A stretch of 64,000 nucleotides of DNA from a virus (Duplodnaviria; Caudoviricetes), in the IMG/VR virus record IMGVR_UViG_3300023235_001725. One strand, given 5' to 3'. Both the position numbers and the translations under genes were made by a program. Positions within the stretch are counted from its first letter, which is position 1. Each line of letters begins with the position of its first letter. Under the pieces are notes generated by a model. It was given only the letters and a program-made list of their open reading frames with translations. It made no database searches and was not told where the DNA came from. This document shows positions 11,574 through 52,595 of the stretch, one piece after another.

Positions 11574-11987
11574 TTATTCGGAGATTTTCCTAAGCTGTCT
11601 CTTGAACCACGAGCGCTTTTTGTCTGGTATTGTCTCTGGATATGCAAGTTCTTCTAGTGATTTGTGTGGATTAAATAAGCGAACTCCTTTATATAAAAAG
11701 GACTCCATCATCTCATGCTTAACGATTTGCTCGAAAGCAAGCCACGCTGTCATCACTAAGCCTTTTTCGCTAGTATCTAGTGGAGCTGTGTAGTCTCGGC
11801 CAAAGCCAGTGCCCATTTCCCCAGTTAAAGTGTCTGGTCTCCAGAATCTACATCTCAGCAAGAATATGTCGTCTGTCTTCTGTATCTCGAACTGAGGTTT
11901 TCCTGTTTCGTGCATTTGGATTCCAGATGGTGCGAAACTAATCTGGTTCAGGATGTTTTGAGCTTCTTCTTGAGTGTAGTTTTCCAT
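11574..11987 (-). CDS. Hypothetical phage protein
   Basis: 137-aa ORF, CGTATAT motif upstream. Confidence 0.75.
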   Translation of the reverse strand: MENYTQEEAQNILNQISFAPSGIQMHETGKPQFEIQKTDDIFLLRCRFWRPDTLTGEMGTGFGRDYTAPLDTSEKGLVMTAWLAFEQIVKHEMMESFLYKGVRLFNPHKSLEELAYPETIPDKKRSWFKRQLRKISE

Positions 11988-13171: not shown

Positions 13172-15849
13172 GCTTCTACTTCTGTTTTTATTTCTTTCAC
13201 CTCTTTCTTAGGCTTCAAAGTCTTCTCGTTTTTGAAAGACAACTCTTCTCCTTTTCTTCCGATAAGGATTGGTGTTTTCTTCCCAACGTTACCGCCTAGA
13301 ATCTCAAAACTCAATGGCTCACGGACAAGTTCCGTAATCGCTCTTTTAACTGGTCTCGCTCCAAACTGTGGGTCGTAGCCTTTTATTCCAAGCAACTCCA
13401 CTGCCTCTGCGGTCCAGTTCAACTCGTACTCTTCCTCTTCCATGTTCTTTCTGAAAGATTTGAGTTGCAATTCAACAATCTGGTTAATTGCGGTTTGGTC
13501 GAGCGGGTTGAAAATAACAACCTCGTCAAGTCGGTTAAGAAGCTCAGGGCGCATTGTTTGCTTGAGTTCTTCCATAACGTCCTCGTTGATTGCTTTGACA
13601 AGCTCTGGCGTTATTACGTTTCCTGAATCCTCGAATTCATCTTGGATAACTCTGGACCCAATGTTTGAAGTCATGATGATGATGGTGTTCTTAAAGTTCA
13701 CCAATCGTCCTTTGTTGTCTGTTAGACGTCCATCGTCTAGAACCTGCAGAAGCACGTTCAACACATCTGGGTGAGCCTTCTCAATCTCGTCCAACAACAC
13801 AACATTGTATGGGCGCTTTCGGACTGGCTCCGTCAATTGACCTCCTTCGTCATATCCAATATACCCTGGAGGCGAACCTACAAGTCGAGAAACAGTGTGC
13901 TTCTCTTGGTACTCAGACATGTCAATTCGAATCATGTGAGTTTCGTCATCAAATAGGTACTCAGCAAGCGCTTTTGCCAACTCTGTTTTTCCAACTCCCG
14001 TTGTTCCCAAGAATAGAAATGAACCAATAGGCTTCTTTGGGTCACCAATACCTGGGACACGATTCACTCGGATTGACTTCGCAACTTCTGATACAGCCTC
14101 TATTTGTCCGATAACTCGCTTTTGCAATTCATCTTCAATGTAAAGAAGTTTCTCATTATCACTCTTTGTCATTTTCGAGACTGGAATTCCAGTCCAAGCC
14201 GAAACAACTTCTGCAATCTCTAACTCAGTCACAACTTCTTTTAGAAGCTTGTGGTGAGATTGAATCTCAATCAGTTTCTCTCTAGCTACTGCTTGTTGCT
14301 TTTCGTTCTCTGGCAACTCACCGTGAAGGAGCTTTGCAGCTCCTTCAAGGTCTGAGTTCTTTGTGAACTGCTCCGCCTGGAAAGACAATTCTTCTTGGGC
14401 TCGCTTGAGTTCTTGAATCTCGTCAATGTACTTCTTTTCACGAAGCCACTTCGCATTCAAATCTTCTTGCGTCTCAATTAGCTCAGACAATTTGTCGAGC
14501 ATCTCTCGCTTGCGCTTCTCAGATGCATTTGAATCTGAGCCCATTGCTGCGAGCTCAATTCGAATTTGTGTGATTTCTCTGTCAACTTCATCCAGCACTT
14601 CTGGCTTGGAGTTAATCTCCAAACGAATTTTAGATGCAGCTTCATCAATCAGGTCGATTGCTTTGTCTGGAAGGTTTCTATCGGTAATGTATCTGTCCGA
14701 CATCTTCACTGCCGCAATCAAGGCATCATCTGAAAACTGAACCTTGTGAAAGTTTTCATACCTACTTTGAAGACCGCGTAATATTGCAACTGTTGTTCCA
14801 GGAGTTGGTTCTTCGACCATTACTTTTTGAAATCTACGCTCCAAAGCTGAATCTTTCTCGATGTGTTTCTGGTACTCGTTCAGAGTTGTTGCTCCAACCG
14901 TTGCCATTTCTCCACGAGCCAAAGCGGGCTTCAAAAGCTCTCCTGCACTCAAAGCTCCACCACCTGAACCTGCGTCCAAGATTGTGTGAATCTCGTCAAT
15001 GAACAAAATGAACTCTTTGTTAGAGTCCTCAACTTCTTTGATAACACCTTTAAGACGTTGTTCAAATTCTCCTTTAAATGAAGCCCCTGCAATTAGAGAA
15101 GCCATGTCAAGAGAGAACAAAGTGCACCCTTTCATATTGACTGGGACATCTCCGCTAAATATTCTTTGTGCCAATCCTTCAACAATAGCTGTTTTACCAA
15201 CTCCTGCCTCTCCAATCAAAATTGGATTGTTCTTGGTGCGTTTTGAAAGGATGTGAAGGGCACGACGCATTTCCGTGTCTCGCCCAATAACTGGGTCAAG
15301 CTTGTTTTGCTCCGCACGTTCGTTTAAGTTGACGGCGTATGCATCCAAGTTGGGAGTTTTGCTTTCTCCTCCTTCTGCGATGAATTCATTCTCACCTTGA
15401 ATATCTTCAAGCGCTGAATCGAGGTGCTTCTCTTCGATATCCATCGAGATAAGTACATTTGTGGCAGTGGAGTTCACACGGAAAAATGCTCGAAGCAAGT
15501 GTTTTGGTTGGCAGAGTTGTTCTCCACCTTGTTCGTTTTCTCCAAACCCAATTGCTATTACCAGAAGTTGATTCATCACCTCAGACATCTCTGGACGACC
15601 TTCGTACTGAACAACTTTGGTGTTCTCTAAGAAAGTCTTTGACAACGTGTTCATCTCTTCGATGGTATATGTCTTACCGCTGTCTTCGTTTACTTTATCT
15701 AGGATAATTGCAACCAAATTATCTTGTTCAACCAGTATAGCACGTAAAACGTGTATTGGCTCAACTTGTTTGTGAGAGAATGACATTGCTTGACGCTGTG
15801 CTCTTGCAAGCGTATCATGTGCCCCTGGGGAAAATTGTTCGTTATTCAA
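13168..15849 (-). CDS. clpB: Chaperone ClpB
   Basis: 893 aa; Clp-[16 protein letters not shown], coiled-coil middle domain, [19 protein letters not shown]. Confidence 0.96.
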
Positions 15850-28948: not shown

Positions 28949-29311
28949 CTATACGTTGTAGCTGTTGTGTGCAAAAGATATTATATCGCCAAAGTATTGT
29001 TGAAGATTATTCAACTCCAAATACAAGTTTAACATTTCCTCAACGGAAAGTGTTTCAACTTGTTTGTTGGATTGTTTAAATTTAATCTCTGATTCCAAAG
29101 CTGACTTAACCTCTGGAGTAGGCTGCTTCTCTAGTATGGATATAAGTTCTGACTCCATGCCAAAAATTCCTTCTTGGTCCAAGAACGCCTTAAGAGGTTC
29201 AGTCTCAATCATGACTGGCGTACCCATAGACTCATTCTCTTGAGAGTAATCCTGGCTAGGAAATTCAATTTCCAGTAGCGCCTTGCGTATTTGACTTCTA
29301 AGCTTATTCAT
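28949..29311 (-). CDS. Hypothetical late protein
   Basis: Start MNKLRSQIRKALLE just after TATTTATA. Confidence 0.7.
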   Translation of the reverse strand: MNKLRSQIRKALLEIEFPSQDYSQENESMGTPVMIETEPLKAFLDQEGIFGMESELISILEKQPTPEVKSALESEIKFKQSNKQVETLSVEEMLNLYLELNNLQQYFGDIISFAHNSYNV

Positions 29312-29889: not shown

Positions 29890-30192
29890 TTATGGCCATG
29901 TCTCCAGATATATGTTTGTCATTATCATGTTTCCAACCTCTACTCTTGCTGTGCCTAGAAATTTATATTTGAAAGTGGTAAGTTTAAATCCTGAGCGCGT
30001 TATAGAACGAGTCTTAACTCCACCCATAAAAACTATAGGATGCAAACTATGAGGCCCAATAGATGACAACTGTGATTCTATCAAAAATACATCTCCAGGA
30101 GTCAGGTCGCTTAATTCAGGCGGATTTTTATATTCATGAATGAAGCTCCTGCTTTTGATGTGCACTATTTGAAAAGGTATTATGTATTCCAT
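29890..30192 (-). CDS. Hypothetical protein
   Basis: 100-aa ORF. Confidence 0.55.
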   Translation of the reverse strand: MEYIIPFQIVHIKSRSFIHEYKNPPELSDLTPGDVFLIESQLSSIGPHSLHPIVFMGGVKTRSITRSGFKLTTFKYKFLGTARVEVGNMIMTNIYLETWP

Positions 30193-30859: not shown

Positions 30860-31270
30860 TTAAATTACACCTGAATAAACCACAACAGTCTGCCCTTTCT
30901 TCTTCTTAGGCTTACCTTGTGTTAACTCAAAAACTTCTGTAAGTATTTCGTTTTCCCCTGAAAGGCGTGTAACAACTAAACTATAAGTTTCAAGATGAGG
31001 CCCGTTGATAGGTACTCCTCCAACAATATCGATGTCAATAGAGCGTGTGTCACCATTGACAGTATTAGAAACAACGCCTCCTGTGGTGTTTTTTGGCAGC
31101 CAGACCTCAATCTTAACTTGATATTCATTTCCTCCTAGAGCAGTGATTGTAACGACGGGTTCATACACGGCAATGGATTCTTCGTCGTTATAGACGGGTT
31201 CTGCTGCAAAAGCAGAGGGCAGAAAAAACATTGAAATAAATACAATGATAATAGATGCGTAAGATTTCAT
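30860..31270 (-). CDS. Secreted hypothetical protein
   Basis: Signal peptide ending AFA; beta-rich body. Confidence 0.7.
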   Translation of the reverse strand: MKSYASIIIVFISMFFLPSAFAAEPVYNDEESIAVYEPVVTITALGGNEYQVKIEVWLPKNTTGGVVSNTVNGDTRSIDIDIVGGVPINGPHLETYSLVVTRLSGENEILTEVFELTQGKPKKKKGQTVVVYSGVI

Positions 31271-36790: not shown

Positions 36791-37507
36791 TCAGATGTAG
36801 AGTTTTGAGTTTGTAATCTCCATAACCATTCCAAACCCTATTCCTGTAGATTGTCCCAAACCATAGTCGTGAATAGCTTGAGCAATCTTTTTGTTGCAAT
36901 GTACAACAACGCTGCATACATTTGCTTTGTTCACACTGGTTTTACTTGGGGCTCCAGAAGAACTCATCAAAATATCTCTAACCTTATTGTGGTTTGATTT
37001 CTGAACTTCAATTCTAAAGCCGTCAAATTTTAAAGTGTTGTCAATGTTTGACAAACGTCTTTTTGTTTGTTCAGACAACTCCTCTTCAAACCCATCATCA
37101 TTTAGGGTGTGAAATTCATAACGGCCTCCATTTTTTTTCTTTAGCAAAATGCCAGTTTCAGTGGTTTTAAAAACAGTAAAACCATCATACAAGTCTTCTT
37201 GGATGAACTCAATGCCCGTCAGTTTCATTCCAAATCCAAAATCTTTATTTGCTCCTGCTCCTGCGAGAAGTTTATTTAAAAAGCTCTCGTCTCCAGAGGA
37301 TATAAACAAACTGCCTCCATGAGCGTACTCAATGGATGTTCCGCCTTCTGTAATCGTTCCTCCAATCATCCTAGAGATAACATAGTTAGAAGGTTGATTG
37401 TGATAGAGATTATCTTTTCCTAAGCATTTATGAATGTAACTCACAACGTGCTTAAGGTTATTTGGAACCAACTCCTTTGCGGAGCTAAATTTTAACTGTA
37501 TTCTCAT
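36791..37507 (-). CDS. cas6: Cas6 endoribonuclease (I-B/III-like, not Cas6f)
   Basis: C-terminal G-rich loop YGLGQSTGIGFGMV; 238 aa; adjacent to array. Confidence 0.88.
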   Translation of the reverse strand: MRIQLKFSSAKELVPNNLKHVVSYIHKCLGKDNLYHNQPSNYVISRMIGGTITEGGTSIEYAHGGSLFISSGDESFLNKLLAGAGANKDFGFGMKLTGIEFIQEDLYDGFTVFKTTETGILLKKKNGGRYEFHTLNDDGFEEELSEQTKRRLSNIDNTLKFDGFRIEVQKSNHNKVRDILMSSSGAPSKTSVNKANVCSVVVHCNKKIAQAIHDYGLGQSTGIGFGMVMEITNSKLYI

Positions 37508-38385
37508 GACTCTATTGTAAGTTTAGTGGATATATCTCCTACTCTATCATAACCCTCAATGCTTAGCCTGTTTCCCGATACCACTCTTTCAATCCAAACC
37601 AAGCCTCCATCCAATATAGTTGCCACACCAGCTGAGTTTTCAAGGACTTCTTTGTCTTCTTCATCAAGCGGCACAATAAGGGTTCCGCTCAAGCGAATCG
37701 TTTTATCTATGCCATTGGGAACAACCAGCATAAGTCCTTTTGCGATAGAGTCCTTAGCCATCTCCATAGGGTCGTTTTTATCAGTAGGAGTCTTATTTCT
37801 CAGCCAGTTAACGACACCCGTTTTTCCAACTTTACGTTCTCTAAAATGAGAGAGCAAAGCTTGTTTAGAGGCTGAGTTTAAAGATTGCTTAAAAATATCA
37901 GGCACATCTTCTACTGGAACTTTTCTAATATTTGAGTGGCCCGTTGCCTCTATGAGCATTGTGATGAAATCACCATAATGCTCTTTTAGGTAGGCTTCAA
38001 TCAAATCCCAAGTGAGGTTTGTTATTTTGGCGTTTGAGTTCCAAAAAGCTTTCCTTGTGCGGCATATCTCTTTAATTTCTCGAACATCCCCTTTTTTAGT
38101 AACCCAAGTGGGCACTTCAATCTTTAGGAAGCTGTTTTTTGCCTTCTCAATCAATCTATCCTGCTTCTGATAGACACAGGCCCCAAAAAAAGGGACTGGT
38201 CTTTCATTAAAAAGCACGTGCAAGACATTTGAAATCTGATGATGTGTTAAGTAGGACTCAAATTGAGGGAGCCCCTTTCGAATCTCACCTGCGTCTTTAT
38301 TTCCAAGAAACAATTTATCTTTCGTGTCTTTATGGTTACGAAACAAAACTGCATCTTTAAACTTCAAAACCATAAATTCTTTCAT
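37504..38385 (-). CDS. cas5: Cas5fv-like subunit (type I-F2 variant)
   Basis: LTHHQISNVLHVLFNER and LSGTLIVPLD..EVLENSAGVATILDGGLVWI resemble Cas5fv motifs; enlarged at 293 aa. Confidence 0.65.
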   Translation of the reverse strand: MKEFMVLKFKDAVLFRNHKDTKDKLFLGNKDAGEIRKGLPQFESYLTHHQISNVLHVLFNERPVPFFGACVYQKQDRLIEKAKNSFLKIEVPTWVTKKGDVREIKEICRTRKAFWNSNAKITNLTWDLIEAYLKEHYGDFITMLIEATGHSNIRKVPVEDVPDIFKQSLNSASKQALLSHFRERKVGKTGVVNWLRNKTPTDKNDPMEMAKDSIAKGLMLVVPNGIDKTIRLSGTLIVPLDEEDKEVLENSAGVATILDGGLVWIERVVSGNRLSIEGYDRVGDISTKLTIES

Positions 38386-39464
38386 GCTGGGGTGGTTTCG
38401 GTTTTCTTTACTTTCTCTGCTTTTTGCTTTGCGGCTTTGGCTTTCTTTTCCACGCTATTCTTTTTTAAAGTTGCTCGTTCTTCTTCCGCGTACTTCTTTA
38501 ATTCTTCATGAAGTTTTTTTGCATCTCCAGTAACATCTTCCGTATATGCTTCAAACACTTCATACTGCAGAGCTTGAATATTTTCTATTGAATTGATTTC
38601 GACCCAACCCTCTTCGCTGTTAAACCTGTCAATCAAAGGATTGGAAACCAGTTTCACCATCAGCTTCTCTTTGCGTGCATAAGCACTGCTTCGACTGATG
38701 TCCAACGTAAGAAGCTTTTCTAAAAATACAGAAACTAATAAACGAACCTGGTCATCTGTGAATTTGAATCCACGCTCAGCAATGTTTACAGAACTTCCTC
38801 TCATTTGGAAAAATCCAAGCTCATTATCAAATGAGCCAAAGTGAATGTCGGCGTACTTTTTGAATAAATCAAAATGGTCGGGATTAAAACCATAACGTCC
38901 CATGATTTCGTCACAAGAGTAAAACTGAAGCTCTTTCAGGTTTATAGCACCTTGAGATGAATACTTAATCTTCCCAATTGTTTCTTTTTTGTAGATAGAA
39001 TTATCACTTTTTTCTTCGTCTGCTTCATAGCTGATTTTCTCACCAGACTTTGAATGGAATTCGAGACGCGAAAGAGCATCGCACGTTTGTTCGGCAGCTA
39101 CTAGTGTAATGGCTCCTTTTCTTTTTAACGTATCGTTTTTAATGGCATGCAAGTGCCCATTAAGAATGCTTTCTGGATGGGCAAGGTTTGCATAAAGTAA
39201 ATCTTTATTGTGTGTAAGCTTTGGTGTTTGAGACACTTTATCATACATCGCATGCTTCATGCAGGTAGGCGAAATAACTAATTTGTAACGAGGCTCTTTT
39301 CCATCGTTGTAAATGTTTCTCTTTGCATACATTACGTTGCTATGGTATGATTTTAAGAAAGGGAATTTTTCTCCAATATGGAACCGTTGCTCATTGCTAT
39401 CGTAATTAACAACGCCATTGCCTTCAATTTCAATTTTAAAAAGAATTGACTTTACTTTGCTCAT
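38382..39464 (-). CDS. cas7: Cas7fv-like backbone subunit (type I-F2 variant)
   Basis: KSILFKIEIEGNGVVNY, LVISPTCMKH, KETIGKIKYSSQGAINLKELQF and TDDQVRLLV parallel Shewanella Cas7fv motifs as recalled. Confidence 0.8.
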   Translation of the reverse strand: MSKVKSILFKIEIEGNGVVNYDSNEQRFHIGEKFPFLKSYHSNVMYAKRNIYNDGKEPRYKLVISPTCMKHAMYDKVSQTPKLTHNKDLLYANLAHPESILNGHLHAIKNDTLKRKGAITLVAAEQTCDALSRLEFHSKSGEKISYEADEEKSDNSIYKKETIGKIKYSSQGAINLKELQFYSCDEIMGRYGFNPDHFDLFKKYADIHFGSFDNELGFFQMRGSSVNIAERGFKFTDDQVRLLVSVFLEKLLTLDISRSSAYARKEKLMVKLVSNPLIDRFNSEEGWVEINSIENIQALQYEVFEAYTEDVTGDAKKLHEELKKYAEEERATLKKNSVEKKAKAAKQKAEKVKKTETTPA

Positions 39465-46869: not shown

Positions 46870-47069
46870 GCTTTTAATATGAGCATGAGCGTAAAAAAAA
46901 GAAAGGAACAAATAATAAAACGGTGCATACGCACAATGCTGATAGCAAACTTTATTATACACCTTGTTAGTTATACACAGTACGGTTATTTAAGGTAGAA
47001 TTTTGATACGAAGAAAGAATAAACTTTTTAAAAATGTGCGGTGAAAATTTTAATTCTGAATATTTATAT

Positions 47070-47324
47070 GTGAACTACCCATCTACAGCAAGCTGATGGA
47101 AGGGCTTCTAAAAAAATATAAATGCAAAGAGCAGATACATATTCAGAATTTACAGCGTTTCGTAGACTTGCCCATTGGCAACGCCTCACCGCCTTTTTAT
47201 TTATCCTGCGAAGTTGGCCCCAACCCACAGCTTAATATTTTGTTTCGCTTATGATTTTATGCAAACAACGAAAAAGAACTTATTTGTAAATATATAAAAA
47301 ACGCTTACATCTCACCCACGCTAA
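47070..47324 (-). mobile_element. Internally deleted IS200/IS605 (tnpB-type) element
   Basis: Left end after TGAT, tnpB-like 3' tip (AKQNIK...), right-end hairpin GAAGCCCTTCCATCAGCTTGCTGTAGATGGGTAGTTCAC; 255 bp, no intact ORF. Confidence 0.65.
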
Positions 47325-47329
47325 ATCAT

Positions 47330-47647
47330 ATGGAACAAGAAAAAAAATTAAAGAACTTCATTAAAACTACAATCATAGAGTTTTTTAATGAACAATATGA
47401 AAATATTCAACATTATGATTTATTTGAATATTATGAAAAACAACCAAAAGAATTAAAGGTAATTGTAGATAAATATTTGAATTTATTAGATAAACGTAAA
47501 GGTTATGATGTGATTAAGAAATTTCACGATGCAGTTTATAAAATAGGTTATACGTTTGATAGTGGATTAGATGCTGAACCACACGGTTTAAGACCCATAG
47601 GGGTTAAATTAAATCAGTTGGTAGGTTGGGAAGATATAGATAATTAA
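47330..47647 (+). CDS. Hypothetical cassette protein
   Basis: N-terminus LKNFIKTTIIEFFNE. Confidence 0.75.
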   Translation: MEQEKKLKNFIKTTIIEFFNEQYENIQHYDLFEYYEKQPKELKVIVDKYLNLLDKRKGYDVIKKFHDAVYKIGYTFDSGLDAEPHGLRPIGVKLNQLVGWEDIDN

Positions 47648-47903
47648 AACACGAATGTAGTATTGTGTATAACGCCACTTTTCATTTGTGAAAATTTTAT
47701 CACCAATATTCTCATTTACAAACTGCTTAAAGTTCTTAACTTTATCAATCATTTCTCTCATATCTTTACTCACTGGTCTGTTCATTTTCTTGGTTGTTTG
47801 TTAGTGTATGCCGTACACTGTATTGAATTTATTCGCTTGTTATGTGTAAGTGTTACATTCATCGTTCTAATCAACATTTAGGTTAAAAAATTTAAAAGAC
47901 AAT

Positions 47904-48299
47904 TTACCCCAATATTTTTTGAACCCAATCAGGTAATTTACTAAATTTAATTAATTTACATTTTACTGTTGGTAAATTATTTCTAATTGATTTTTGAATC
48001 CTGTGATTTCCATCAAGAATATATTTAATAGATTTATCATCATTCATCAAAATCAATACTGGGTATTGTATGTCGGATTTTTCTATTTTATCAATTTCTT
48101 CTGTGTTTCCGTCCCAAGTTAATACAATATTTTTTAGTTTATTGGTATCCATTTCTTGAACTTTAATGTTTTTTGTAAGGTCTAATATCTGAACTAACGT
48201 AACTGTTTGGTTGTCATTATTTGTCCAAGATGTATCTTCTAAACCTTCATTCAAAAATTCTCTTATAGTTGTTTTAATAAATCCTCTCAAATCTTTCAT
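47904..48299 (-). CDS. ParB/Srx-like cassette protein
   Basis: MKDLRGFIKTTIREFLNE; YPVLI, ILDGNHRIQK; TATTTATA at 48314-48321. Confidence 0.75.
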   Translation of the reverse strand: MKDLRGFIKTTIREFLNEGLEDTSWTNNDNQTVTLVQILDLTKNIKVQEMDTNKLKNIVLTWDGNTEEIDKIEKSDIQYPVLILMNDDKSIKYILDGNHRIQKSIRNNLPTVKCKLIKFSKLPDWVQKILG

Positions 48300-48502
48300 T
48301 GTTTTCTTTTATATATAAATACTTAGAATTTAAATTTTTGTTTATTTCTTCGTATCAACATTTTACCTTAATTAACCACACCCACACATAACAACGTGTA
48401 TAATAAAGTTTGCTATCAAGTTCAGTGGTAATTTAAAAGTTCATCTAAGCAAACCTTCTCATACACCCATTCGTTACCCACAATGTAAAAAGCCGCCAAG
48501 CT

Positions 48503-49021
48503 TTACGGCTGTATGTTTAGCAACTCTTTTTCTCTTTTTCTAATACTTCTATAATCTATAAAGTTATGTGTTCCTTTATTCGCTTTTTCGCCAAATATTA
48601 TAATACTCATTCCCATCCATAAACCTCGTGGTTCATCATTAAAATTTACTTCACCGTTTATAAAACGTATTTCTGCATCAATCATAGTTTCTGCCCACCA
48701 TTTTGTATTACTTCTTACTGGTATTAAGCAAACTTTTGTGCCACCATTTATTAACGCTTCGTTATGTGCTTTTTTAACCCATTTACTTAAATTTCTATCA
48801 AATGGAGGGTTCATCCAACAATTACCAATCCAATCTTTATTTAAAGAATTATCTTCTTTAGTCCAGTATTTTGGTAATTTATGATTTAATGAACTTGCAC
48901 AAACATCAGTAGTTATTGCAAACTCTTTTATTAAAGGTTGTACAATCGTTTTAGGTGTACTATACTCAATGCTTTTACTCTCAAAAGAGTTGTTTTTATT
49001 TCCAATTTTATCTATTCCCAT
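48503..49021 (-). CDS. Phage-type DNA N6-adenine methyltransferase (Dam_phage family)
   Basis: EYSTP, DVCAS, CWMNPPF, LIPVRSNTKWW. Confidence 0.88.
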   Translation of the reverse strand: MGIDKIGNKNNSFESKSIEYSTPKTIVQPLIKEFAITTDVCASSLNHKLPKYWTKEDNSLNKDWIGNCWMNPPFDRNLSKWVKKAHNEALINGGTKVCLIPVRSNTKWWAETMIDAEIRFINGEVNFNDEPRGLWMGMSIIIFGEKANKGTHNFIDYRSIRKREKELLNIQP

Positions 49022-49207
49022 TCTGTATGTATTTGCCCTCGTACCTCACGCACGGCTTTTTAAAAAGTGGGTAACACCGTATAAAAAACATTGCTAAATT
49101 GTGCAATATCAAAGGTCTGTTAATATTAATTTACTTTATTTCTAATCGTTAATTCTGTGCTTTCTAAACGCAACATTTCTTATACATGTACGTTAGCAGA
49201 AATAAAA

Positions 49208-49414
49208 TTATCCAGCCACCACACCATCAATAACCTTTCGTAGTTCAACATTTATTTCATCTCGCAAGTCCAACAATTCATCCATTGTTAAGTAACTTAA
49301 ACTATCTTCATTCAGCCATAGTTCAAATGACCTTCTACCAGTTGAATGATAGATACGAATTGTTTCAATCTTCGTTTTCAGTGTTTCCGTTTGTCCCCCG
49401 TCTTTGATTTTCAT
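49208..49414 (-). CDS. Hypothetical cassette protein
   Basis: Single ORF between two attC-type sites. Confidence 0.65.
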   Translation of the reverse strand: MKIKDGGQTETLKTKIETIRIYHSTGRRSFELWLNEDSLSYLTMDELLDLRDEINVELRKVIDGVVAG

Positions 49415-49523
49415 TTTTGTTTCAATTTATATTTACGAGCATCCCACGCTCAAAAGGGATAATTTTACATCTGCTAATGCTAACAACGTATAAAGTGCAT
49501 TAAAACGCCACTTATACTAAGCA

Positions 49524-49724
49524 TTAGCAAACATTAAAATCCACCTCTCTACCTTCTCCGCAAATATGGTAAAAGTCTTCTTTGTGGGCTTGCTCTCCTT
49601 TTTTCCAAACCCTTATATAAACATTTCTCGTAATTTTATTTCTCCTTGCTTTTATACCGTTTAGCTCTCCGTACTCAAACGGTTTGCTAACAAAGTATAA
49701 ATAACATTGCTTAATTAGGTTCAT
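49524..49724 (-). CDS. Hypothetical cassette protein starting inside an attC-type site
   Basis: MNLIKQCYLYFVSKP; N-terminus encoded by the palindrome arm. Confidence 0.6.
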   Translation of the reverse strand: MNLIKQCYLYFVSKPFEYGELNGIKARRNKITRNVYIRVWKKGEQAHKEDFYHICGEGREVDFNVC

Positions 49725-49783
49725 AGTTTTAAATTTAGTGCTGCAAGTCGCAACGTTTCTTATACTAGTCATTAGCACCAATA

Positions 49784-50359
49784 CTACGAAAGTACTTCGA
49801 TTGAAAGTATTTTAATTTTAGTTTCATCGAATATCAATAAATTTAATTCTTTTGTTTCGATGATATATGTTCCGTCATAACCATTAAGTTTCAACCAATC
49901 ATATACCCAAGTTTGCTCAATTGATGAATAATCACCATCCAATAAATTATTATACTTTCTATCAATGTCATCATCAGGAAATTTATCCTCGATATATTCT
50001 AAAAGATTTTTACCAATTACATAATATTCTACGCCAATTTTATCATTTACTTTACTTTTTTCATAATACATTAATAAATCATAGGTTGATGGTAACTTTC
50101 TAAAATCTATAATATTATTAGTTAAAACTTGAATTTTGTAAATATGTGGTGAATAATTACCAGCATAGTATTTAGCAAATTCAATATTTGATGTTAAAAA
50201 TATTGGTGATTTGTAATTTATATCAAATAAAGTTCCGTTTTTTATCTTGAATTTATCGAATTTTTCTTTAGAACCGTGATACCAAGTATTATCATTTACT
50301 ATAAGTTGCTCATTAAGATATTCTCTAATCGTTGTCACTATAAACTTTCTCAATTCCAT
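49784..50359 (-). CDS. ADP-ribosyltransferase-fold-like cassette protein
   Basis: Start MELRKFIVTTIREYLNE; WYHGS..F..F, IFLTSNIEFAKYY, GYDG, LLIFD motifs. Confidence 0.6.
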   Translation of the reverse strand: MELRKFIVTTIREYLNEQLIVNDNTWYHGSKEKFDKFKIKNGTLFDINYKSPIFLTSNIEFAKYYAGNYSPHIYKIQVLTNNIIDFRKLPSTYDLLMYYEKSKVNDKIGVEYYVIGKNLLEYIEDKFPDDDIDRKYNNLLDGDYSSIEQTWVYDWLKLNGYDGTYIIETKELNLLIFDETKIKILSIEVLS

Positions 50360-50562
50360 TCTTTTATATATAGATATTCCAAAATTAAATTTCTGACAAA
50401 CAAACCGTACTGGTGCTAACGCTATGTATATTCCAGTTTTGTGAAAAACAAAACCGATAACATACATTTAACGTTATGCTCCATGCCTTAGTTCAGTTCT
50501 TCAATTTAACATTTGTGATAAAAAACAAAAAGAATTTTGCCAACGCACCTTATTTTTCAAGA

Positions 50563-51081
50563 CTATCTCTGTTTATTAATTTCTTTCATCACTTCACTAT
50601 AATTCATATTAGGTTCGACATCGTAATAATTAATTACATCCTTAAAAACATCTTCACCATCAAATCCATCTCCAAGTATAAAATTTGAACTTTTAAACAC
50701 TACAAGTTCTTGTTGTAGACTATCTTTATGATGCCAAGAAATATCTTCAATTTCTTCAATAGCCTTATTGAACGATTTTTCATCATCAAATCCATATCCT
50801 GATAAACCCCATTCGGGTTCACTATTCCACATACCATTTGTAACATCTTTTCTTGGTGGATATGGTACATATTTACCGTCCCCAACTCTCTCGTTGTAAT
50901 CATCCATAGCATCTTTCTCCGTTTCAAACCATGCTTGCATATTTCCACTAAAATTACGTCTAGTATCATCATCTGCATCGCTTGTCCATCTTAGAAAATA
51001 TTTGGAATTATTAAGATTTTCATTTACAAATTCCTTAAAGTTCTTAACTTTATCAATCATTTTTCTCACATCTTCGCTCAT
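50563..51081 (-). CDS. Hypothetical cassette protein
   Basis: Start MSEDVRKMIDKVKNFKEFVNE. Confidence 0.7.
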   Translation of the reverse strand: MSEDVRKMIDKVKNFKEFVNENLNNSKYFLRWTSDADDDTRRNFSGNMQAWFETEKDAMDDYNERVGDGKYVPYPPRKDVTNGMWNSEPEWGLSGYGFDDEKSFNKAIEEIEDISWHHKDSLQQELVVFKSSNFILGDGFDGEDVFKDVINYYDVEPNMNYSEVMKEINKQR

Positions 51082-51212
51082 AGTATCTTTATATAAAAAT
51101 AGTTTCAAATAAACATCATCCTTTAATAATTCAACACGTAGCATAACGCTATGTATATTCCAGTTTTGTGAAAAACAAAACCGATAACATACATTTAACG
51201 CTGTGTGTAATG

Positions 51213-51395
51213 CTACACTTTTGTACGTCTTGGCGGTGGCTTAGATTTTTTGGTTCTGATTTCTTGGAAGTCACACTCTTTGTCGTAAAATTTACTACAA
51301 CATCTTGCGCCTATTCCAAACAATGAGCGTTTAATATTTTCATTGGTACACCAAGCACCTTTGTTATTATATTTACAATTTATCTTTCTTTCCAT
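51213..51395 (-). CDS. Hypothetical Cys-rich cassette protein
   Basis: 60-aa ORF between attC-type sites. Confidence 0.6.
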   Translation of the reverse strand: MERKINCKYNNKGAWCTNENIKRSLFGIGARCCSKFYDKECDFQEIRTKKSKPPPRRTKV

Positions 51396-51460
51396 TTCAA
51401 TATTATTTAATTAATAATCCGCACTACACACAGCACTTTGTATAGTGCATAGTTCGTTCC

Positions 51461-51706
51461 TCACAACGCCACCATACAAGGGGCGTTGCCATTAGAGTTT
51501 AACCAAACATAAGCTGTCGGGTCATACTTTTTTGGCTTTCCTAAATATTGGCTTTTATCGCAAACCTTACACTCTCGTCTAAATCCTTGTTCGTATATCT
51601 GTTTACATTTTTTATCTTTAAATCTAGTCCATTTGCTTATCTCCCAAAAGTGTAAGGAAAAACGGCAACTAACATTGTATAAAAAACATTGCTTAATTCT
51701 ATTCAT
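51461..51706 (-). CDS. Hypothetical cassette protein starting inside an attC-type site
   Basis: MNRIKQCFLYNVSCRF, homologous N-terminus to 49524-49724. Confidence 0.6.
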   Translation of the reverse strand: MNRIKQCFLYNVSCRFSLHFWEISKWTRFKDKKCKQIYEQGFRRECKVCDKSQYLGKPKKYDPTAYVWLNSNGNAPCMVAL

Positions 51707-51761
51707 AATTTTAAATTTAGTGCTGCAAGAACAGGTCTTTGAACTTGGGTCAAATCGTCCA

Positions 51762-52451
51762 TTAAAAAACTCTCTGTGTTAGTCTCTCAAATCCGTCCTT
51801 CCATGTTTCGTGTTTATCAAATCTTTCACCACAACCAGTGGTTCCACCTTTCCAGCTTCCTCTTCTCTTTCCTACTTCTGAAGAGAATTCAACGTCAATT
51901 GTACGACTCACTTGGCTGAACATAGTTGTTCGTTTGAACCATCTCATTCTCCATTCTCTCTCCGAGATGGATATATCGGCATTAACCACGTTCAGTTCTC
52001 CATTTGGAGTGTGCTTATCAACATACGGCATATTAGTTCTCCACATTTTCTCTTTCCATTCGTCTTTATAAAAGTCTTGTTTGTCGCCTTTTATTGAATG
52101 AACCCATGTTCCATCCTTCAGTTTAATGCTGTGGCGAACGTGGTCGAGATTCCAGGGCATATTAATGTATTTAGATTTCTTTCCGTAACGAATAACAAAG
52201 CTCTGACTCTGCCAACCATCCTGATACCAATAACAGCCGTACTGTTCTGAGTCGCCGTAATCCTTTCTCTTGTGTGACCAGGGCATACTCCAAAACAGGC
52301 TCCAGAATAGGAATGCTATATGGATTTGGGGTCTCTCATCATCAGAATACCCGTGGCACTCGTAAGTTAAGTGAAAAGCAACTGGTTTTCCCCAGCTGTA
52401 TCTATAAAATGATATATTATCGTTTTCAAACTTCTTTGTGGGGTTTCGCAT
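51762..52451 (-). CDS. Hypothetical phage protein
   Basis: 229 aa; VEFSSEVGKRRGSWKGGTTGCG. Confidence 0.75.
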   Translation of the reverse strand: MRNPTKKFENDNISFYRYSWGKPVAFHLTYECHGYSDDERPQIHIAFLFWSLFWSMPWSHKRKDYGDSEQYGCYWYQDGWQSQSFVIRYGKKSKYINMPWNLDHVRHSIKLKDGTWVHSIKGDKQDFYKDEWKEKMWRTNMPYVDKHTPNGELNVVNADISISEREWRMRWFKRTTMFSQVSRTIDVEFSSEVGKRRGSWKGGTTGCGERFDKHETWKDGFERLTQRVF

Positions 52452-52523
52452 TCTACAAATGTAATCAATTTTACAAATATAAAAACTGTTCGAAGGGCGG
52501 CCTTTTTCTATCTGTAATTCAAG

Positions 52524-52595
52524 AGGGGCGTAGGGGGTTCGAACCCCTGACGTACAGGGTTAAAGCCTGATGTTCTACCTCTGAACTAACGCCCC
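52524..52595 (-). tRNA. Putative ochre suppressor tRNA (anticodon TTA)
   Basis: GGGGCGT/ACGCCCC acceptor, U73, CAGG-CTTTAAC-CCTG with canonical 7-nt loop, T-loop TTCGAAC. Confidence 0.8.

Follow-up and report, generated by a model that had tools for sequence, protein, structure and literature searches.

A tract of eight single-gene units and attC-like hairpins in a phage genome, interpreted as an integron-like cassette array

The DNA analyzed here is a window of 64,000 nucleotides from a giant salt-lake phage of the Caudoviricetes (IMG/VR record IMGVR_UViG_3300023235_001725), in which positions 46940-51732 are occupied by eight single-gene units with imperfect hairpins in between. These hairpins have the form x'TAAC, spacer, GTATAAA...TTTATAC, spacer, GTTAx, with the inner stems pairing within each hairpin; seven full sites and two half-sites were found in the window. 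G+C content is 31-33% in the array as compared to approx. 40% in its surroundings, consistent with the AT-rich tract described in an initial annotation, which had interpreted the region as an integron-like cassette array.

The left boundary is formed by a plus-strand half-site (46940-46974) that consists of a right arm only (AGCAAACTTTATTATAC, spacer ACCTT, GTTAGTTAT); positions 46940-46968 repeat the left arm of hairpin A exactly, in inverted orientation. Next to it are a 105-aa ORF on the plus strand (47330-47647; phrog_37263), which shares the N-terminal motif FIKTTI.EF.NE with g131 and the ART protein (see below), a truncated 58-aa paralogue of the 193-aa cassette gene on the minus strand (47609-47785; 88% identical over the first 68 nt), and, on the plus strand, a core without a hairpin (GTTATGTGT, 47839-47847; partner ACACATAAC at 48384), at which metagenome contigs end exactly. 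The inverted hairpin arm, the single plus-strand ORF and the truncated paralogue bear out the earlier suggestion that the left end is rearranged.

All cassette genes proper are located on the minus strand, the 105-aa ORF at the rearranged left end being the sole ORF of the array on the opposite strand, and the sites are given here on the plus strand. The first gene (47904-48299; 131 aa, phrog_17560, function unknown) is followed by site A (48384-48481; ACACATAAC ... GTTACCCAC) and by a gene for a 172-aa Dam-type N6-adenine DNA methyltransferase (48503-49021), which has its own terminator-like hairpin (48491-48510). Site B (49067-49199; GTGGGTAAC ... GTTAGCAG), with a long loop, precedes a 68-aa gene of unknown function (49208-49414) flanked by an inverted repeat with 19 of 21 positions paired, and site C (49471-49532; CTGCTAA-TGCTAAC ... 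ATTAGCAAAC) carries the same loop, CATTAAAAC, as bacterial sites. A 66-aa gene (49524-49724) has its start codon inside the loop of hairpin D (49682-49780; GTTTGCTAAC ... ATTAGCACCA), and the subsequent gene (49784-50359; approx. 191 aa) showed a weak match to ART-PolyVal ADP-ribosyltransferases (26.5 bits, under the Pfam cut-off of 31.2). Site E (50411-50482; TGGTGCTAAC ... GTTATGCT), a gene of 172-193 aa and unknown function (50563-51084), site F (51140-51209; AGCATAAC ... GCTGTGTGTA), a gene for a Cys-rich 60-aa protein of unknown function (51213-51395) and site G (51425-51493; TACACACAGC ... GTTGCCATT) complete the full sites. The last cassette gene (51461-51706; 81 aa) starts inside the loop of half-site H (51663-51729; CGGCAAC-TAAC, left arm and loop, without a right arm), which forms the right boundary and is 89% identical to site D over its left arm and loop. 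Both array ends (46940-46974 and 51663-51729) are thus truncated hairpins, not a distinct site, and no homologue of the repeated terminal element of Polaribacter phage P12002L was found in the window. Outside the array, the flanking minus-strand gene (51762-52451) encodes a CBASS inhibitor of the Acb3 family.

The window sites are 62-133 nt long and have the architecture of attC sites (approx. 57-141 nt): AAC/GTT R boxes, unpaired spacers of 3-5 nt in the left arm and 5-8 nt in the right arm, an L stem and a variable loop. Moreover, the variable core 3' of one hairpin complements the core 5' of the next, across the gene. All seven core pairs proposed in the initial annotation were recovered, i.e., GTTATGTGT (47839) with ACACATAAC (48384), GTTACCCAC (48473) with GTGGGTAAC (49067), GTTAGCAG (49192) with CTGCTAA (49471), TTAGCAAAC (49524) with GTTTGCTAAC (49682), TTAGCACCA (49772) with TGGTGCTAAC (50411), GTTATGCT (50473) with AGCATAAC (51140), and GCTGTGTGTA (51200) with TACACACAGC (51425); an eighth, weak pair (GTTGCC at 51485 with GGCAAC at 51664) was also observed, so that cassette ends are complementary at all 8 junctions. 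Contiguous complementarity of the cognate pairs was 9, 9, 8, 9, 9, 8, 10 and 6 bases, whereas the 56 non-cognate pairs averaged 3.1 and did not exceed 7. When the core order was permuted, the observed sum was reached in 10 of 200,000 random assignments (approx. 1 in 40,320), i.e., by the true ordering only. Five cassettes have a longer flanking inverted repeat, of 13-22 bp, and the non-canonical GCT that replaces GTT in site F is compensated by AGC in site G. Sites E and F, on the other hand, have an interior in common (62 nt, 97% identical; 50417-50478 and 51144-51205), in essence as described earlier, while their x' cores differ, which counts against the cassette interpretation; hairpins B, D and H are 86-90% alike, and direct-repeat similarity among the window sites is confined to these two groups.

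As regex and duplex scanners were either too noisy or too strict, and RNAalifold returned no structure for 16 sites that a raw MAFFT alignment had misaligned, a hand-given structure and a covariance model were used instead. Among 52 family members, 90.7% of cells were paired, as compared to 29-42% in slid controls; 8 of the 11 L-stem pairs were changed on both sides, and none of 500 shuffles reached the observed score. A custom covariance model, proposed with the initial annotation as a check, was trained on bacterial sites only, from chromosomal arrays of Tenacibaculum, Eudoraea, Mangrovimonas, Rufibacter and Pontibacter. In the window, this model matched sites C (37.5 bits, E = 4.7e-6), D (26.1 bits, E = 0.0018) and B (23.5 bits, E = 0.0072), all on the plus strand; only 3 of 8 sites thus passed at E < 0.01, with weak matches for A (12.5 bits), H and E and no comparable match elsewhere in the window. 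The possibility that the palindromes arose by chance finds some support in the base composition of the tract, as short inverted repeats are common in AT-rich DNA, but it is refuted by the core permutation test, the stem covariation and the independent bacterial model, as well as by the recurrence of these sites in many genomes, and we give it practically no weight.

The polarity of the sites is given by the spacer asymmetry and the loop; the GTT/AAC cores, being symmetric, do not reveal it by themselves. In six phage records (the window, P12002L, L007, L008, L012 and L013) the bacterial model matches the strand antisense to the genes, whereas in bacteria it matches the sense strand. Of 84 bacterial cassettes, 67 have the longer spacer upstream, and the reverse is true in phages. 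The earlier observation that most genes run antisense to the site polarity therefore holds, also beyond the window. With genes and sites on opposite strands, phage cassettes mirror bacterial ones, and the ORFs of these six records lack the sense orientation relative to the attC top strand that a classical integron would have.

Members of this hairpin family were also identified in P12002L and five other viral contigs, with chained cores in each. In P12002L, GTTAGGCAC and GTGCCTAAC are chained around a methyltransferase gene. Qi et al. 2023 (PMC9892861) listed two sites in this phage. One of them, the predicted attC site P12002L_attC1, had been detected by HattCI and gave no recombinants when assayed with IntI1. 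This site (30002-30062) scored 34.6 bits with our bacterial model, and we found additional family members at 30903-30961, 38029-38096 and 38873-38942. An exact pattern scan of species genomes yielded >120 stretches, almost all from Bacteroidota, with 46 chained pairs among them. No match to the 7-kb tract was found by blastn in 50,697 phage records, tblastn detected no window cassette protein encoded in the other viral loci, and neither a query with Acb3 nor an exact look-up of a 173-aa protein form returned a relative or a match, respectively; a look-up of the Dam methyltransferase returned the same arrangement twice. Relatives identified through a flanking 569-aa protein showed only 36-44% identity and contained no sites fitting our first search pattern.

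The initial annotation had noted the absence of an integrase from the window, and a six-frame hmmsearch with a profile of array-linked recombinases agreed, finding no tyrosine recombinase (best E = 1.3). PF00589 was likewise absent from the complete genomes of P12002L and of a 321-kb relative. Arrays in Tenacibaculum and Eudoraea (L147 and L148), on the other hand, are located directly downstream of a co-oriented Xer/IntI-like recombinase, a neighbor that the window array lacks. In two stretches these enzymes scored 197 and 179 bits on TIGR02249, i.e., below the integron-integrase cut-off; they are short, simple tyrosine recombinases without the IntI-specific insertion and about equally close to XerA and IntI4 (PDB). 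The palindromes are members of a family whose long arrays in Bacteroidota chromosomes adjoin an IntI/Xer-like recombinase. Their explanation as a plain REP or terminator family, named at the outset as one that would refute the cassette interpretation, can be set aside given the core chaining, the covarying stems, the fixed polarity and this bacterial array family.

Mosaic contexts were observed. Hairpin B together with the Dam leader is followed by a different gene and neighbor in one other phage record (L008), and contigs from the salt-lake runs stop at cores and continue into other cores or cassettes. Contexts thus differ between phages. Contigs of eight salt-lake runs contained neither a circle nor a precise cassette deletion, which counts against cassette movement. 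These contigs showed no core-to-core joints; candidate "skips" were short-sided or came from paralogues. In integrons, exchange occurs at G|TT. Where the same hairpin occurs in two contexts, however, homology already stops where the L box meets the spacer, which fits either homologous exchange or a different cleavage point. Cassette mobility in the window phage is hence inferred from mosaicism, not shown.

These breakpoints bear on another explanation, in which the hairpins are regulatory repeats (terminators, 5' stabilizers or promoters) and genes are swapped by homologous recombination only, without a site-specific recombinase, as for the published promoter-early stem-loop motifs (PeSLs) of T4-type phages (PMC2839356, PMC4122927). 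Homology breakpoints between contexts do coincide with the ends of the conserved hairpin, the identity of E and F over approx. 60 nt and the similarity among B, D and H would suffice for homologous exchange, and a recombinase is missing from the window, from P12002L and from the 321-kb relative. In addition, folding of the hairpins is more favorable on the mRNA-sense strand, with G-U pairs in place of mismatches, two ORFs start in a hairpin loop and 5' leaders are common to several cassettes. Homologous exchange nevertheless leaves unexplained the complementary gene ends and compensating changes, which are found even between dissimilar hairpins (A/B, C/D, F/G), and the same sites form bacterial arrays beside an IntI/Xer-like recombinase. 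There was also no excess of promoter or terminator consensus, although the sigma-70-type promoter scan (34 found vs. 31 expected) is uninformative as this consensus is ill-suited to Bacteroidota. Overall, we regard this explanation as unlikely, though not negligible.

Less probable still is a static early-gene operon whose complementary ends would function at the RNA level, with each mRNA pairing its 5' and 3' flanks into a processing or stabilizing stem. The co-orientation of all cassette genes proper (the 105-aa ORF excepted), the flanking repeats of 19-22 bp in two cassettes and terminator-like GC stems with A/T runs would be compatible with such stems. Several pairs, however, comprise just 6-9 bp at distances of 170-680 nt, too short for RNase III-type stems; the GTTA/TAAC boxes, asymmetric spacer and polarity are common to bacterial arrays transcribed from the other strand, and cassette contexts vary between phages.

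We thus favor, with a probability of roughly 0.7, the interpretation of the tract as an eight-cassette integron-like array of a kind typical of Bacteroidota and their phages, served by a Xer/IntI-like recombinase in trans, with a contribution from homologous exchange; the best reading is a recombinase-less, mirror-oriented, CALIN-like array. This supports the earlier integron-cassette interpretation, while the array does not qualify as an integron in the strict sense (no IntI in the window, no recognized attI, mirrored genes). Each site is a strand-specific imperfect hairpin comprising an R box (x'TAAC/GTTAx), a spacer that is unpaired and asymmetric, an L box (GTATAAA/TTTATAC with a few additional variable pairs) and a variable loop. 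The outer variable half of the R box belongs to the cassette, so that cassette ends are complementary and, in a circular cassette, would make up the full R-box stem. Under the proposed mechanism, a tyrosine recombinase of the Xer/IntI-like kind, provided in trans by the host or by a part of the phage genome beyond the window, may act on the folded sites to excise, insert and reorder cassettes, and homologous recombination between near-identical hairpins (E/F; B/D/H) may cause extra shuffling. Whereas the anatomy, chaining, family membership, polarity and mosaic contexts of the sites and the absence of a recombinase from the window are demonstrated by the data above, recombination itself, its enzyme and the crossover point remain inferences.

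Two of the eight cassette genes are candidate anti-defense genes; the Dam methyltransferase and the weak ADP-ribosyltransferase match beside the Acb3 CBASS inhibitor suggest a store of exchangeable anti-defense genes. It is tempting to hypothesize, although we would put this at somewhat below even odds, that Bacteroidota phages run their own mirror-image version of an unrecognized integron-like system, in which unrelated phages swap cassettes, including this anti-defense store, via a Xer-like recombinase of host or phage origin, devoid of the IntI domain and perhaps cleaving at the L-box border. As phage genes would lie on the strand opposite to that of bacterial cassettes, the two pools would stay expression-incompatible.

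In bacteria, integrons are known to serve for the storage and reshuffling of accessory genes, among them anti-phage defenses. An equivalent cassette store on the phage side, if true, would represent a new route for rapid exchange of counter-defense genes, and integron-type recombination would not be tied to canonical IntI. As the family is abundant in Bacteroidota but nearly escapes current integron finders, an entire phylum and its viruses are probably missing from cassette censuses; IntegronFinder 2.0 reported almost no integrons in Bacteroidetes (10.1101/2022.02.28.482270). The mirrored orientation also offers a way to test which of the DNA strands recombines while the phage replicates.

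Among known systems, Xer/dif recombination, including archaeal XerA and the "integron-like" simple tyrosine recombinases (PMC8138268), resembles the bacterial array-linked enzyme in being short and simple, but Xer systems act on one duplex dif-like site and not on arrays of folded-hairpin cassettes. PeSLs are similar in that intergenic stem-loops are repeated around small accessory genes in a large phage's hyperplastic region, with mosaic gene content between relatives and exchange inside the repeats; however, they are direct repeats in which a conserved early promoter is fused to a terminator stem-loop and which undergo homologous recombination, and they lack cassette-specific complementary cores, GTTA/TAAC boxes and a bacterial counterpart beside a recombinase. 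Integrons, in particular sedentary chromosomal integrons and CALINs, share with the array its single-ORF units, imperfect hairpins of 58-135 nt with AAC/GTT R boxes, unpaired spacer, L stem and variable loop, as well as cassettes whose first bases complement the inverse core at the other end, a single site polarity and an AT-rich array relative to the genome. Unlike integrons, the window array has genes antisense to the site polarity, no IntI and no recognized attI or Pc; the bacterial array-linked recombinase is without the IntI insertion and stays under the integron-integrase cut-off, the L-box sequence is GTATAAA/TTTATAC, and the points of apparent exchange are at the border of L box and spacer. 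While the classical requirement of IntI beside the array is not met, that of a CALIN (at least two attC-type sites with no integrase in reach) is met within 64 kb, provided that the sites count as attC-type. CALINs have been reported in virulent phages, most prominently P12002L, without description of chaining, mirrored orientation or a chromosomal counterpart in Bacteroidota (Qi et al. 2023; PMC9892861). The P12002L CALIN contains the same site family and, like the window array, carries methyltransferases as cargo; the window array differs in being larger, with eight cassettes, and in residing in a jumbo-type phage.

The window belongs to a large phage genome that was assembled from salt-lake metagenomes and whose DNA was found in at least 24 salt-lake runs; the genes of the window, which are mostly on the minus strand, include a DNA ligase, a Clp-like ATPase and 15 tRNAs. 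G+C content is 31-33% across positions 46940-51732, as compared to approx. 40% elsewhere. This tract represents an array of eight small minus-strand ORFs with an imperfect palindrome between each, comprising seven full hairpin sites (designated A to G) and two half-sites at the array ends (H and 46940-46974). All sites share one plan on the + strand, i.e., a variable core (x') with TAAC at its end, 3-5 nt of spacer, an inner stem starting with GTATA(A/T), a loop of 8-90 nt, a return stem with TATAC at its end, a second and longer spacer (5-8 nt), GTTA, and a second variable core (x). At the left end of the array (46940-48418), which contains the sole + strand ORF and a truncated copy of a gene, the boundary is formed by the left arm of hairpin A, repeated exactly in inverted orientation (46940-46968, corresponding to 48393-48418; 29 of 30 nt agree once spacer and GTTA are counted). 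This inverted repeat of the arm suggests an inversion between hairpin arms.

While the inner stems pair inside one site, the variable cores do not pair inside their own site; rather, the core following a given site and the one preceding the next site are reverse complements of each other, with a gene in between. The eight cognate core pairs showed contiguous matches of 9, 9, 8, 9, 9, 8, 10 and 6 nt, as compared to a mean of 3.1 nt (maximum 7 nt) for the 56 wrong pairings, and among random assignments of cores the observed sum of matches was reached by the true order only. In five cassettes (one gene between two sites) the inverted repeat extends to 13-22 nt. The one non-canonical pair is compensated, with GCT for GTT in site F and AGC for AAC in site G, and a 62-nt interior is common to sites E and F. 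Match lengths, the assignment test, the GCT/AGC compensation and the E/F interior therefore bear out the initial annotation, which had described an AT-rich tract with chained cores, a covarying non-canonical pair and like interiors; recomputation confirmed each of these statements. In another viral contig (L007, 5360-5400), two hairpins are separated by only a 17-nt perfect palindrome, TTAGCTGT-A-ACAGCTAA, which is a cassette core pair without a gene (i.e., an "empty cassette").

Evidence for movement of cassettes comes from hairpins and cores that recur in different surroundings. Hairpin B and the 45-nt leader of the Dam gene are also present together in a second viral contig (L008), where the core before the hairpin is a different one and the ORF that follows (308 aa) is unrelated. 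The genes flanked by the cores GTTACCCAC/GTGGGTAAC differ between the window, Polaribacter phage P12002L and viral contig L013. Contigs from eight salt-lake runs showed assembly breaks at cores (e.g., 47839, 49772 and 50473), and loose contig ends run from shared hairpins into other cores (e.g., GTTACCTGC, GTTAGCCAC, ..CCGATAAC and ..GGGCGGTAAC); the population thus carries these hairpins in further cassette contexts as well. Neither a core-to-core deletion nor a circle junction was seen in the contigs of the eight runs, in which rare forms are invisible. In three runs (X1, X17 and X23), 50470-50547 is joined to 47708 at full depth; the 193-aa cassette contributes its 3' flank to this joint and the truncated 58-aa ORF its 5' part, behind a different hairpin, which speaks for a full-length paralogue that lies in another array, either in the same genome or in a relative of equal abundance.

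Where a hairpin occurs in two contexts, homology always stops at the border of L box and spacer rather than at G|TT. This position fits homologous exchange within the conserved hairpin as well as a non-IntI cleavage point, and does not decide between the two. Homologous exchange alone, as in the model for promoter-early stem-loops (PeSLs) of T4-type phages (PMC2839356, PMC4122927), would leave the complementary cassette ends without a reason, and it is these ends that argue most strongly for a recombination intermediate that is circular or folded. We consider it likely (probability of roughly 0.7) that the window carries a recombinase-less, mirror-oriented integron-like array of the Bacteroidota type, which is moved in trans by a Xer/IntI-like enzyme with a contribution of homologous recombination. 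Specifically, the enzyme would act in trans on folded sites to move cassettes, and recombination between similar hairpins would contribute to cassette exchange.

The relationship to bacterial sites was assessed with a covariance model built only from nine bacterial sites, each in the sense orientation of its own cassette genes. With filters off, this model matched window sites C (E = 4.7e-6), D (E = 0.0018) and B (E = 0.0072) over their full length, all three at E < 0.01; sites A, H and E showed weak matches and nothing comparable to C, D and B was found by this model in the rest of the 64 kb. Stem covariation was strong in an alignment of 52 members, in which 90.7% of cells were paired and 8 of the 11 inner pairs showed double changes, with a covariation score reached by none of 500 shuffles; this alignment had been fitted to the model, which qualifies the covariation. 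All matches in the window are on the + strand and the cassette genes on the minus strand; the same reversed polarity was observed in P12002L and in four other viral contigs (L007, L008, L012 and L013), whereas in bacterial sites outside the training set the model matches the gene-sense strand. Likewise, the strand that carries the asymmetric loop CATTAAAAC is the sense strand in bacteria but the antisense one in phages. The longer spacer precedes the gene in 67 of 84 bacterial cassettes; it follows the gene in 6 of 7 phage cassettes that were scored automatically and in 6 of 7 window cassettes that were scored by hand. The earlier remark that genes are antisense to the sites is thus right on the basis of model strand, loop and spacer asymmetry, but polarity could not have been derived from the GTT/AAC cores, as these are symmetric. 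A purely RNA-level role of the hairpins is difficult to reconcile with the situation in bacteria, where transcription of these sites is from the other strand.

Among the array genes, one encodes a Dam-type methyltransferase (76.7 bits), which is also carried by contigs in the 0.2-1 Mb size class, and one a product that matches ART-PolyVal weakly (26.5 bits, under the cut-off), while six ORFs have no known function; a gene for an Acb3 CBASS inhibitor is located directly outside the array. An anti-defence role of the array is plausible, without functional data. Between the Acb3 gene and a 67-aa ORF, ARAGORN called a tRNA with anticodon TTA (52523-52595, minus strand), which would read the UAA stop; the ORFs of the window appear intact with the standard code. 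An N-terminal peptide (..FIKTTIREFLNE..) is common to a 131-aa gene, the ART-like gene and the + strand 105-aa ORF (48225-48392, 50285-50420 and 47250-47410, respectively), and the first two also share a 5' leader (48304-48340 and 50359-50395; 81% identical). Another module of this sort is common to the 193-aa gene and the truncated 58-aa ORF. Internal proteins of phage T4 have a common targeting leader, and by analogy the shared N-terminal modules could be one as well. Hairpins D (49682-49780) and H (51663-51729) are each followed, in gene sense, by an ORF that starts in the hairpin loop and reads through arm and core; the resulting N-termini are MNLIKQCYLY and MNRIKQCFLY.

Seven viral contigs were identified with an exact pattern for the left arm of the B/D/H type. 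Complete sites are present in five of them, and in several of these five, small ORFs are surrounded by chained cores. The same sites occur in the isolated and completely sequenced P12002L, where chained cores surround methyltransferase and Mom-like genes; P12002L_attC1 is one of the family sites, and gp35 is bracketed by GTTAGGCAC/GTGCCTAAC. The attC1/gp35 locus was reported by Qi et al. 2023 as a CALIN, i.e., a cluster of attC sites lacking an integrase; in their suicide-conjugation assay with IntI1, attC1 yielded no recombinants and the atypical terminal element attC2 did (PMC9892861). The published attC2 element is present in two nearly identical copies (P12002L, 29166-29247 and 37200-37283), both at the gene-downstream end of an array and with different next cores (GTTAGGCAC and GTTACCCAC), and seems to be a site of the array terminus, not a cassette hairpin. 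In L008, which derives from a complete 53.7-kb temperate viral contig, a mini-array at 360-2222 has the chained cores GTTATGCTT/AAGCATAAC and GTTAGCAGTA/TACTGCTAAC and lies no more than 80 nt from a generic 379-aa tyrosine integrase; a 35-nt piece adjoining this integrase is repeated at 11601-11640.

When one genome for each prokaryote species was scanned with a stricter pattern that covers both arms, at least 120 stretches were identified, almost all in Bacteroidota among the matches listed (including Tenacibaculum, Aquimarina, Rufibacter, Pontibacter and Eudoraea), with at least 46 chained core pairs. Tenacibaculum sp. C7A-26P2 and Eudoraea chungangensis have at least five and eight chained cassettes, respectively, and in both a tyrosine recombinase gene is located directly upstream of the array on the same strand (14399-15208 in the Tenacibaculum stretch L147 and 14731-15804 in the Eudoraea stretch L148). 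The best models for these two recombinases were TIGR02249 (integron integrase; 197 and 179 bits, cut-off 265) and NF040815 (XerA/integron; 197 and 216 bits, cut-off 220), and comparison with PDB placed them about equally close to XerA and V. cholerae IntI4. The TIGR02249 match falls into two stretches with 16-21 residues in between as compared to approx. 60 model positions; the array-linked recombinases therefore lack the IntI-specific insertion. A profile of these recombinases found nothing in any frame of the 64-kb window, confirming that no integrase is present there, as initially noted; the same profile does detect the distant integrases of L008. PF00589 was not found in the complete P12002L genome nor in a complete 321-kb relative of the window phage.

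In Bacteroidetes, IntegronFinder 2.0 reported only In0 elements and one complete integron, in Salinibacter ruber (10.1101/2022.02.28.482270); the Bacteroidota arrays therefore seem to be missed by current tools. Our literature search found no paper describing these arrays, which is no proof of absence. As phage CALINs have already been published, the window array is not categorically new; what is new here, as compared to known integrons and CALINs, is the recombinase without the IntI insertion, the Bacteroidota-wide family and the mirrored orientation of the phage cassettes.
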